From assembly GCA_048939465.1 (NCBI GenBank), contig JBHLPL010000003.1:1-32000 (forward strand): 32,000 nucleotides of DNA. The letters run 5' to 3'. Shown piece by piece: positions 3,983 to 6,822 of the stretch. Origin of the DNA: Promethearchaeota archaeon (lineage in GTDB: Archaea; Asgardarchaeota; Odinarchaeia; Odinarchaeales; JBHLKK01). The notes under the pieces were generated by a model. That model made no database searches, had not been told where the DNA came from, and saw nothing but the letters and a program-made list of their open reading frames with translations. A program made the position numbers and the translations under genes. Every line of letters starts with the position of its first letter. Positions within the stretch are counted from its first letter, which is position 1.

Positions 3983-4032
3983 AACAATAGACCTAATGAG
4001 CCATCTTGAAAGTACCATCAATAGAAAAATAG

Positions 4033-4128
4033 TGGGCCCGCCGGGCTTCGATCCCGGGACCTTACCCGAAGTGTTCTCACTTTCTCGGTTATCAGCCGAG
4101 CGCTCTAACCAGGCTGAGCCACGGGCCC
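4033..4128 (-). tRNA. tRNA-Ile(GAT) with a ~21-nt intron in the variable region (best fit 43/44, 4063-4083)
   Basis: Acceptor GGGCCCG/CGGGCCC, D-stem GCTC/GAGC, anticodon arm CTCGG-CTGATAA-CCGAG, T-arm CCGGG-ATCGAAG-CCCGG. Removing AAAGTGAGAACACTTCGGGTA restores the variable region AGGTC. The BHB-like fold is relaxed and CCA is not encoded. Confidence 0.9.
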
Positions 4129-4195: not shown

Positions 4196-4298
4196 TGGTG
4201 GACCGGAGGGGATTTGAACCCCTGGCTTGCGGTCTCCTGCTAGTTGCAGTGACTCTCCGCCTTGCGAAGACGGCGATCTTCCACTGATCTACCGGCCC
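4196..4298 (-). tRNA. tRNA-Ala(CGC) with a 28-nt intron at 45/46 (4227-4254)
   Basis: Acceptor GGGCCGG/CCGGTCC with G3:U70, anticodon arm CCGTC-TTCGCAA-GGCGG, T-loop TTCAAAT, encoded CCA. A GCGG/CCGC central helix with two 3-nt bulges gives the mature variable region AGGCC. Confidence 0.93.
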
Positions 4299-4326: not shown

Positions 4327-6822
4327 TCAAGAGACTATGTAGATATATGGATGTTGTATCGATTCAGATTTAAAGACTAAGGTGTATTTCTCCTTTTTAG
4401 GTGGTTCTTGATCCCAATCTTGGTCCGGTCTATCGGAAAACGTTTGAGAGTCTTCCGGAGGGAAAAAGTCTAGAGTTTTGATGTTGTGCATGTTTTTAAG
4501 ATCTCTTTTGAATGGAGAGAGTTCTTCTGGTGCGTGCACGGCTGTGATCGGTGCGTTCAGGGCTATTCTCCGTGCTTTTTTAAATGACCAGATGGCGCTG
4601 TTAAATTCTGTAAATAGATCACTGAGCTGCAATATGGGCAACTCCCATTCTGAGCTGGGTTGAGGAAATTGCGTCGTATGAATGCTTTCTCCCTTAGAAT
4701 ACAGCTGTTGATATATTTTTTCCGTCATGAAGGGACATATAGGTGCTAGAAGTTTCAGAATTGTTTTGAGAACCATATGAAGCGTGTACCATGCCCCGTT
4801 CTGTAGCTCCGTGGAAAATTGTCCATTACGATTGTAGCATCTAGGTTTTACAGACTCTATGAAGTGAGACGCAAAGAAGTCCCAAGTGAAGGAGCGCACG
4901 CTAGTTGCCGGGGGTTGAAAATCTAAACCCTCATATCCTTGGATACATCGTCGAATGGTTTCGTTTAGTTTGGCCAAAACAAGACGATCAGTATCTGTGA
5001 ATTCATACCCATCCTGAGGTACTGGAAACGTCGATACGAACCTTGCAACGTTCCAAAGTTTAGTTAGGAATTTGAATGCCCCATTTAGCCGTTCTTCTGA
5101 GCAACGTATATCACTTCCAATACTTGCTTCCAGAGAATGAAATAGTCGGATGGCATCAGAACCGTATTTCTTAATGATGGGTTTAGGAGGTATTGTGTTT
5201 CCTAATGATGTGTGCATAGCTCTTCCTTCAGCATCAAGTACCATTCCACCAAGCCATATATTCTTGAATGCTGGTTTTTTCAGCAGTTGAAATGTTCTAA
5301 GTAAGCTGTAATATAGCCATGTTCGAACTATATCCTTCGCTTGAGTTCGTATGGAACAGGGGAACGCACGTTTGAAAAACCCTTCATCTCGCATGTAGGA
5401 TAGAATCTGAAGTTGACTTATTCCAGAGTCAAACCAGGTGTCGAACGTTCTCTCTTCGCCTACGAATTCACTGCTATCACAATACGGGCATTTGTCAAAT
5501 GGCGGTGGGTCTTTCCAAGGCTGATAATATTCTCCCGGTGGAGGTACTATTGGTTTATGACATTTCTTGCAGTACCATAAAGGAATCTCGTCTCCGTAGT
5601 ATCTTCTTCTGCTTATAGGCCAGTCCACGGTTATCGATTCTAACCAGTTTAGGAATATTTGTTTATGCTTTTTAGGGAACCATTTGATTTTTGACTCGAT
5701 TTTTCTAAGGTCTTCTTTGTAATCGAGTTGTTTCAAATAATATTCGGGCATAGCTACGAACTCTATCGGGTTTCCGGAACGCCAACATGTAGGCGTCCTA
5801 TGAATGGTCTTTTCTTGTTTGACAATGAGATCGCTTGCCTTTAGGTCTTCGATTATAGCATGCTTTGCTTCTCTTACGGTCATTCCAGCATACTTTCCAG
5901 CAGCCTTAGTCATCTTTCCATCAGGTGATATTGCAGCAATAGGTTCGAGTGCTAAATCCCTGAAAAGGCGTACGTCTGTGTAGTCACCATAGGAGCATGT
6001 CATTACTGCGCCAGTTCCAAACTCCATTCTTGCCTCACGATGAGGAATAATCGGGACCCTTATATCATACAATGGTACGATGGCAGTTTTATCGTGAAGG
6101 TGTCTATATCTTTCATCATCCGGATGTACCATCACAACTGCACAGGCAGGCAGTAGCTCTGGGCGTGTGGTTGCTATAACAAGATCTTCTCCGGTTTCTA
6201 GAACCCTGAATTTGATATAGACAAGATGTATCTCTTCTTCTTTGTATTCGATCTCCGCATCCGCAATTGTGGTATTACAAACTGGACACCAGTTATTAGG
6301 TCTTGTATCAACATATACTTGTCCTCTGTTCCATAATTCGATGAATGTTGCTTGGGTTATTCTTCTGTATTCAGGGCTATCTGTTCGGTATATGTCTTCA
6401 TGTTCAAAGGAGCTACAGCTTAGACCAAGACGTTCAAATAACCAAATGATTTCTTTTTCGTGTTTGTCGAGGAATTGTCGACATAGCGAGAGGAATTCCT
6501 CTCTTGGCGTTTCACGCATGGTTATTTTGAATTCTTTCTCAACCGAGACCTCTACAGGAAGTCCATTCCTGTCTATTCCGAGAGGAAACAGGACTTCAGA
6601 ACCGCACATCCGTTTATACCTAGCAATTACATCTATCTGGGAGTAGTGTATTACACGATGAAAAGCTAGCGTTCCAGACGGATAGGGAGGGGGTGTATCG
6701 ATAGAAAATATCGGTTTTTCTGTTTTCTTATCAAAAGCATATGTTTTTTTCTTTCTCCAAGAATGCATGATCTCTTCTTCGAGGTTAGGAATCCATCTTT
6801 TTTCCTTTAACTTTGGTCTCAT
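4327..6822 (-). CDS. valS: Valyl-tRNA synthetase homolog, archaeal type, with degenerate HIGH and KMSKS motifs
   Basis: SIDTPPPYPSG, HYSQID, GIDRNGLPVE, editing-domain motifs ATTRPELL and GTGAVMTCSYGD, DWPISRRRYYG, FDTWFDS, R..GA.KFLTKLWN. The HIGH position reads AFHR and the KMSKS position reads AMHTS. Confidence 0.9.
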   Translation of the reverse strand: MRPKLKEKRWIPNLEEEIMHSWRKKKTYAFDKKTEKPIFSIDTPPPYPSGTLAFHRVIHYSQIDVIARYKRMCGSEVLFPLGIDRNGLPVEVSVEKEFKITMRETPREEFLSLCRQFLDKHEKEIIWLFERLGLSCSSFEHEDIYRTDSPEYRRITQATFIELWNRGQVYVDTRPNNWCPVCNTTIADAEIEYKEEEIHLVYIKFRVLETGEDLVIATTRPELLPACAVVMVHPDDERYRHLHDKTAIVPLYDIRVPIIPHREARMEFGTGAVMTCSYGDYTDVRLFRDLALEPIAAISPDGKMTKAAGKYAGMTVREAKHAIIEDLKASDLIVKQEKTIHRTPTCWRSGNPIEFVAMPEYYLKQLDYKEDLRKIESKIKWFPKKHKQIFLNWLESITVDWPISRRRYYGDEIPLWYCKKCHKPIVPPPGEYYQPWKDPPPFDKCPYCDSSEFVGEERTFDTWFDSGISQLQILSYMRDEGFFKRAFPCSIRTQAKDIVRTWLYYSLLRTFQLLKKPAFKNIWLGGMVLDAEGRAMHTSLGNTIPPKPIIKKYGSDAIRLFHSLEASIGSDIRCSEERLNGAFKFLTKLWNVARFVSTFPVPQDGYEFTDTDRLVLAKLNETIRRCIQGYEGLDFQPPATSVRSFTWDFFASHFIESVKPRCYNRNGQFSTELQNGAWYTLHMVLKTILKLLAPICPFMTEKIYQQLYSKGESIHTTQFPQPSSEWELPILQLSDLFTEFNSAIWSFKKARRIALNAPITAVHAPEELSPFKRDLKNMHNIKTLDFFPPEDSQTFSDRPDQDWDQEPPKKEKYTLVFKSESIQHPYIYIVS

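Follow-up and report, generated by a model that had tools for sequence, protein, structure and literature searches.

[quoted passage not shown] The HIGH-loop lysine of ArgRS is a precedent for a basic residue in this loop, and Austin and First are said to have described in 2002 that K+ stands in for the second KMSKS lysine in human TyrRS. Natural deviations have been characterised in two class Ia enzymes. In many type 2 IleRS (IleRS2) the HIGH motif occurs naturally in the form G/A-x-H-H, and these enzymes are fully active, with a kcat of 45.5 per s for the ALHH enzyme of D. radiodurans (Brkic et al., 2023, PMC10485003). In these enzymes the third His structurally takes the place of the first, a swap that is tolerated by the type 2 scaffold only and inactivates IleRS1, and the non-canonical motif confers mupirocin hyper-resistance (PMC10485003). 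The other case is LeuRS2 of Natrialba magadii, a natural class Ia enzyme in which Ser replaces a KMSKS lysine, with an activation about 6000-fold lower and weak charging retained (PMC4005665). For archaeal ValRS without the HIGH and KMSKS motifs, a literature search returned no paper on the topic among its titles and abstracts.

The gene described here is a valS in the window, by which we mean the whole 32,000-nucleotide stretch of DNA that was analysed, taken from the MAG of an Odin-related Asgard archaeon. Its product is a ValRS whose ATP site reads A-x-H-R / A-M-H-T-S and which occurs in a single species-level lineage beside canonical sisters. Like IleRS2 with the G/A-x-H-H form (D. radiodurans ALHH, S. 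griseus; PDB 8c8w), it belongs to class Ia, starts its HIGH tetrad with a small residue and has His as the third residue, but it differs from this Ile enzyme, which has His at position 4 and an intact KMSKS, in its Arg at position 4 and the loss of the KMSKS lysine; whereas the IleRS2 motif is tied to mupirocin hyper-resistance, no inhibitor is known for the window ValRS. Unlike N. magadii LeuRS2, which coexists with an active LeuRS1 and has lost editing, the window ValRS is single copy and its editing motifs are intact. With a probability of roughly three in four, we consider it to be a working ValRS whose phosphate-binding charge and catalytic His have taken up new positions in the two signature loops, its activity being predicted from sequence comparison and analogy.

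Family assignment and domain structure

The uninterrupted reading frame of 831 aa scored 890.9 bits against NF009687, a curated full-length equivalog model with a cut-off of 738, and 648.8 bits against TIGR00422, for which the cut-off is 612.1. Pfam assigned the class I catalytic domain (PF00133) and the anticodon-binding domain (PF08264). The AF2 model, which gives fold and confidence, has a mean pLDDT of 91.5, and its closest fold in the PDB is the ValRS of T. thermophilus (1GAX, TM 0.84), to which the alignment spans both ends. The class Ia architecture of Rossmann core, CP1 editing domain and helical anticodon-binding domain is thus present, and the features of the locus are listed in Table 1.

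Table 1 Coordinates of valS, its domains and altered sites, and the neighbouring tRNA genes in the window
Feature	Position	Strand	Basis or remark
valS, 831-aa archaeal-type valine-tRNA ligase	4327..6822	-	Profile models, AF2, 1GAX fold match
HIGH-loop patch, codons 48-58, PSGTLAFHRVI	6649..6681	-	Codon comparison with sister species
HIGH-equivalent tetrad A53-F54-H55-R56	6655..6666	-	Aligns with HMGH of 1GAX
CP1 editing domain, motifs ATTRPE and GTGxVMxCSYGDYxD	5788..6237	-	Invariant columns kept
G495A in the Q-G-K-D-I motif	5338..5340	-	Aligns with G488 of 1GAX, two residues ahead of D490
S525G, strand running into the KMSKS loop	5248..5250	-	Alignment
KMSKS-equivalent A535-M-H-T538-S539	5206..5220	-	Aligns with KMSKS of 1GAX
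Anticodon-binding domain PF08264	4540..4989	-	E = 4e-30
tRNA-Ala(CGC), intron-bearing	4199..4298	-	Rfam RF00005, 54.6 bits; 28 nt past the valS stop codon
tRNA-Ile(GAT), intron-bearing	4032/4033..4128	-	Rfam and ARAGORN

The editing-motif residues that are invariant in the family are all kept (T218, T219, R220, P221, E222, G269, G271, M274, C276, S277, G279, D280 and D283), and the Zn cysteines are intact. The valine pocket and the ligand of the alpha-amino group in 1GAX, reportedly formed by P41, P42, D81, W456, D490, I491 and W495, correspond in the alignment to P44, P45, D84, W463, D497, I498 and W502 of the window ValRS, and all of these residues are kept. An earlier note, made from the sequence alone, had described the 831-aa frame, an AFHR and an AMHTS motif at the positions given in Table 1, intact CP1 editing motifs with an anticodon-binding domain, and tRNA-Ala and tRNA-Ile genes on the same strand, the nearer at 28 nt from valS. 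All of these descriptions were borne out.

Altered ATP-site motifs

In the tetrad that aligns with HIGH, the His stands at position 3 rather than position 1 and position 4 is Arg, so that the class I signature lacks its His at position 1 and its Gly at position 3; in the second motif, the second lysine is absent (T538). Codon 538 encodes Lys in all 124 of the closest relatives. The changes specific to the window ValRS comprise the 11-codon HIGH-loop patch, K538T, G495A, S525G and L608F. The patch reads ASSAWHVGGAT or ASSSWHLGGAI in the sister species, from which it differs at about 17-19 of its 33 nucleotides, as counted from the codons.

The nearest relatives in the databases are ValRS of Asgard archaea (Odinarchaeia, Baldrarchaeia and others), followed by those of Bathyarchaeia and Thermoprotei. 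The baseline in the 124 closest relatives is W-H-[VLI]-G-G, which lacks the fourth His, and A-M-H-K-S, which lacks the first Lys, and a few ValRS of the Bathyarchaeia type carry G-x-A-Q at HIGH with no His at all. Since the relatives have already departed from the textbook motifs, the true lineage-specific losses are H53A and K538T and not the entire motifs. The title of the earlier note, according to which both class I signatures are lost, implies another baseline than that of the Asgard and TACK kin, which usually have HxGG and AMHKS. His at HIGH position 3 occurred in none of the 376 other ValRS sampled.

In all other respects the window protein is a member of the archaeal-type ValRS of Asgard and TACK archaea (NF009687/PRK13208; represented by Candidatus Odinarchaeum yellowstonii, P0008, and the same-genus P0123 and P0002), with which it shares synteny, domains, editing motifs and Zn cysteines. 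It differs from them in having L-A-F-H-R in place of W-H-[LV]-G-G and A-M-H-T-S in place of A-M-H-K-S, in addition to G495A and S525G. The length of 831 aa is constant throughout the genus, within which the identity of the window ValRS is 85-87%, compared with 61-67% to the listed Odin-type sequences; the same-genus ortholog P0123, 87% identical, has canonical motifs. The AFHR/AMHTS combination, whose conservation among orthologs the earlier note had proposed to check, is thus confined to one species-level lineage.

Copy number and gene neighbourhood

If the altered gene were a catalytically dead pseudo-synthetase used for tRNA-Val binding or trans-editing, as the earlier note had suggested beside a remodelled ATP site, the true ValRS would have to be encoded in unassembled sequence or on a contig that escaped binning. 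The classical requirement of H53 and K538 for adenylate formation speaks for such a reading, as do the intact editing and anticodon-binding domains and the 9% of the genome that is missing from the MAG (1.96 Mb, 91% complete, 3.8% contamination). A search of this MAG with NF009687 and TIGR00422, however, found no second valS. The other matches that were checked proved to be IleRS, LeuRS and MetRS, besides which there were two short matches of lower score (C84 and C134, at most 36 bits). Among the genomes of relatives, 27 of 31 gave a ValRS match and each of these exactly one, including two single-contig genomes of the same order that are about 98% complete (G003 and G004).

The gene order of PTH2, geranylgeranyl reductase (GGR), valS, two tRNAs and an NicX-like gene is common to the window and its canonical relatives. 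Identity to these relatives amounts to 84-87% for the proteins encoded next to valS and to 85-87% for ValRS itself. This shared order, together with a divergence of the neighbours equal to that of ValRS, identifies the window valS as an ortholog and not a paralog. In the same genome, IleRS and LeuRS retain MSKS, so that the loss of the KMSKS lysine is not a genome-wide trend. At the locus itself, ARAGORN recovered tRNA-Ile and missed tRNA-Ala. Its census of tRNAs in the MAG, in which a tRNA-Val(TAC) on contig C88 was noted, is incomplete because many of the tRNAs bear introns.

Judged from the sequences available, the window valS is most likely the organism's only enzyme for charging valine tRNA and not a dead copy. 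A canonical synthetase coexisting with the altered one, as is expected beside a pseudo-synthetase, was found neither in the 91%-complete MAG nor through read depth in the metagenomic run X3, as described below. With the orthologous locus, unchanged valine-pocket residues and working counterparts for each of the motif changes also standing against it, we regard the pseudo-synthetase as quite improbable; of the two possibilities offered by the earlier note, it is the remodelled ATP site that fits the evidence of a sole valS under purifying selection with counterparts for its motifs.

Support from metagenomes

The HIGH-loop patch, with half of its nucleotides or more altered in one block, also raises the question whether it arose through faulty assembly or sequencing or is chimeric. 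In the contig alignment an indel pair was placed at 6669/6658, and the ancestral codons TGG CAT TTG (W-H-L) give L-A-F when read in the +2 frame, which would agree with a compensated frameshift. The alignment with this indel pair was nevertheless no better than shuffled controls in the nucleotide test (P = 0.64-0.71), which leaves the frameshift unsupported. Copying of the patch from elsewhere in the genome was rejected, as no donor sequence was found and blastn-short gave chance matches of 10-15 nt only.

The sequence recurs in mangrove and sediment metagenomes, although several of these could represent the source sample or have been filed more than once. Six runs belonging to three studies contained 0.98 of the sampled words of the stretch, four runs from another two studies contained 0.78-0.87, and no RNA run was listed among those containing it. 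Logan contigs from two runs encode the identical protein and show a few SNPs that are silent or lie in the flanks. When contigs from four runs were compared, contigs with zero differences covered both motifs. A near-identical strain from another study retains both altered motifs and has SNPs of its own. The agreement of the MAG with independent Logan contigs from several runs, those of this strain among them, makes an artefact extremely improbable.

In run X3, from a mangrove, a contig of 3138 nt with 0 differences has a depth of 19.3, while the diverged variants are at about 4. A paralog of at least 80% nucleotide identity in the same genome is therefore unlikely, and no related valS of equal depth is present in this run, as the pseudo-synthetase reading would require. 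Across samples, the co-occurring variants, which are 12-17% diverged, range in depth ratio to the window type from about 1:1 to about 1:5; this variation between samples identifies them as sister populations and not as a second copy in the genome. As far as the sequence data show, the gene is the only valS and its changes are not errors, and this argues against the earlier note's pseudo-synthetase.

Selection and branch-specific changes

Substitutions were assigned to branches using the two sister lineages, and the changes were polarised with nine outgroups. In the maximum likelihood tree the lineages split almost as a trichotomy, with end branches of 0.10 for the window lineage, 0.074 and about 0.03, and since the window branch is only modestly longer, an overall acceleration of the rate was rejected. 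General decay of the protein was rejected as well, as it has 5 deviations at columns conserved to at least 95%, a number not unusual for the other homologs (median 2, maximum 13). The dN/dS of the window branch, which the earlier note had also proposed to determine, is 0.18 compared with 0.11 and 0.12 in the sisters (Fisher P = 0.025), and falls to 0.16 when both motif regions are excluded; in the anticodon-binding region it is 0.12 and equal to that of the sisters, whose values in these comparisons are 0.11-0.14. The putative SNPs inside the window lineage are mostly synonymous.

The increase is concentrated in the catalytic half. The 11 codons of the HIGH patch have a pN/pS of 2.8 on the window branch and are the sole region above 1, and residues 490-565 reach 0.32, compared with 0.16 elsewhere and 0.11-0.25 in the sisters. 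At sites that are invariant in the other 11 members of the clade, 15 derived changes were found in the window lineage and 4 in each sister, and 11 of the 15 lie within residues 52-56 or 495-549. Those in 495-549 are mostly conservative (Y511F, I524L, I543T, L549I, G495A and S525G). Such an excess in the HIGH loop and in 495-549 could also be claimed for a pseudo-synthetase, but the pN/pS of the catalytic half is still 0.15-0.32. On the evidence of these comparisons, the changes appear to be a remodelling focused on the ATP site rather than decay, the remainder of the protein being under constraint similar to that in the sisters.

The same figures bear on a further reading, according to which the gene encodes the sole ValRS of the organism in a crippled form, with mildly deleterious mutations in the motifs that became fixed because drift is strong in a slow-growing archaeon of sediments, and that were only partly compensated. 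The modestly raised dN/dS (0.18 compared with 0.11-0.12 in the sisters) would agree with this, and the Lys-to-Ser LeuRS2 is a precedent for an enzyme that keeps weak charging (PMC4005665). Against it, contigs of the lineage recur in runs from several studies, and in the mangrove run X3 it dominates, with a depth above that of the canonical relatives, and the changes are patterned rather than random, with a His swap, an Arg gain accompanying a Lys loss and conservative neighbours. A crippled enzyme is thus improbable in our view. G56R and K538T both arose on one short branch of the window lineage, and the two motif changes are most likely recent, restricted to one Asgard archaeal species and of the kind that is tolerated in related active enzymes.

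Precedents and a possible mechanism

Both kinds of altered motif are observed in relatives that are active or hold a sole copy. AFHR fits the pattern [A/G]-x-H-[basic], and in a fold search with the model of the window ValRS the IleRS structures of Brkic et al. (2023) were among the top matches. For the second motif, a search of 1.84 billion representatives led to P0139, which reads H-V-G-R with P-M-H-T-S and belongs to a clade formed by the ValRS of Methanomassiliicoccales and other Thermoplasmata. The KMSKS lysine is absent from all 120 sampled Thermoplasmata ValRS, mostly from Methanomassiliicoccales, which have P-M-H-[S/T/A/V]-S, and position 4 of HIGH is H in 115 and R in 5 of them. This lysine-less ValRS is the sole valS in five Thermoplasmata genomes, four of which are filed as chromosomes.

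The Thermoplasmata enzymes (P0320, P0279) resemble the window ValRS in matching the same ValRS models (P0139, NF009687 953.6 bits) and in having a lysine-less KMSKS loop and a basic position 4. They are about 40% identical to it (P0139), and their lysine-less state is ancient and clade-wide, in contrast to that of the window ValRS, which is found in one species. They also keep the first His (H-L-G-H), which the window ValRS lacks, and no known active enzyme therefore joins both changes. Among 367 ValRS in which both positions could be aligned, 109 have a basic position 4 together with the second KMSKS lysine (K2), 121 a basic position 4 alone and 137 K2 alone, while ValRS lacking both numbered 0 of 367; these counts overstate the significance because they stem from few independent events (two or three). 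The window lineage is an independent case in which a basic position 4 was gained and K2 was lost.

From the alignment, the geometry of the helix and these precedents, we infer that H55 would take the role of H53 and R56 that of K538. The housekeeping ValRS of this Odin-related archaeon would then still activate valine and charge tRNA-Val, with its contacts to the ATP phosphates redistributed across the HIGH and KMSKS loops. The catalytic His would have shifted from position 1 to position 3 of HIGH, and the Arg gained at the ATP-facing position 4 would supply the charge that was given up with the second KMSKS lysine in A-M-H-T-S. G495A, S525G, Y511F, I524L, I543T and L549I are small accompanying changes that may fine-tune the Rossmann fold in its second half.

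A bolder reading by analogy, which we find possible though doubtful, is that archaeal ValRS can draw one positive charge at the ATP phosphates from either HIGH position 4 or the second KMSKS lysine, the two being interchangeable, and that this species has been caught just after the switch and the swap of the His. The change might have been driven by a natural ValRS inhibitor in sediments that mimics the adenylate, and the result would be an inhibitor-resistant ValRS.

Implications

The simple rule that emerges across the 367 sequences is that each ValRS has a basic HIGH position 4, the KMSKS lysine or both, and the window ValRS would extend the G/A-x-H-H idea from IleRS2 to ValRS. For annotation, it follows that a degenerate signature motif in an archaeal ValRS does not imply a dead enzyme. 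As sister enzymes that are 85-87% identical differ by a compact set of changes in HIGH and KMSKS, they form a natural enzyme pair for double-mutant-cycle analysis, which could show how the two loops share the stabilisation of the transition state. The function of the gene is not overturned by these changes; rather, the A-x-H-R / A-M-H-T-S site offers a natural experiment to enzymologists of the aminoacyl-tRNA synthetases and may represent an adaptation to resist an inhibitor.

tRNA genes and co-occurring populations

The valS gene of the window and the two tRNA genes beside it are listed in the table. Identity to the sister species, which belong to the same genus and carry a canonical valS, is 96.7% in the tRNA region, compared with about 87% in valS. 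ARAGORN did not detect tRNA-Ala(CGC) with default settings. Run with intron search across the whole MAG from which the window derives, it reported tRNA-SeC(tca) as well as a ‘Stop’(tta) tRNA, both of which are likely false positives.

valS and neighbouring tRNA genes in the window
Feature	Position	Strand	Intron
valS	4327-6822	-	
tRNA-Ala(CGC)	4199-4298	-	about 25-30 nt
tRNA-Ile(GAT)	4032-4128	-	about 25-30 nt

Sister populations with canonical valS share sediment and mangrove metagenomes with the window lineage, as seen in contigs of the runs X1, X2 and X7 aligned to the window valS, from which their valS genes diverge by 12-17% at the nucleotide level, in a varying ratio to the window lineage. 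The depth and record tables of X1 are almost the same as those of X2, and these two runs may be a single data set filed twice.

KMSKS lysine and HIGH position 4

The second KMSKS position lacks lysine (P-M-H-[S/T/A/V]-S) in 120/120 sampled Thermoplasmata ValRS, mostly from Methanomassiliicoccales (valS loci L026-L105, proteins P0278-P0396), and these enzymes retain H-x-G-H at the HIGH site. In five Thermoplasmata genomes, of which four are filed as chromosomes, such a gene is the sole valS. Our literature search on archaeal ValRS motifs found no paper on these lysine-less enzymes.

Four Methanomassiliicoccales-type valS contigs (L078, L091, L098 and L105) lie inside public bins that bear the labels Bacteroides ovatus, Bifidobacteriaceae, Lachnospiraceae and Anaerovoracaceae, and probably represent archaeal DNA that was mis-binned.

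Among the ValRS representatives, the fragments P0191 (313 aa) and P0198 (683 aa) carry the KMSKS variants A-M-H-R-T, in which Arg replaces the lysine, and P-M-H-T-H, respectively.

In the alignments of 367 ValRS, 109 combine a basic fourth HIGH residue with the second KMSKS lysine, 121 have the basic residue alone, 137 have the lysine alone, and none is without both. In these raw counts, which ignore kinship, an either/or rule holds, by which a ValRS would carry at least one of the two.
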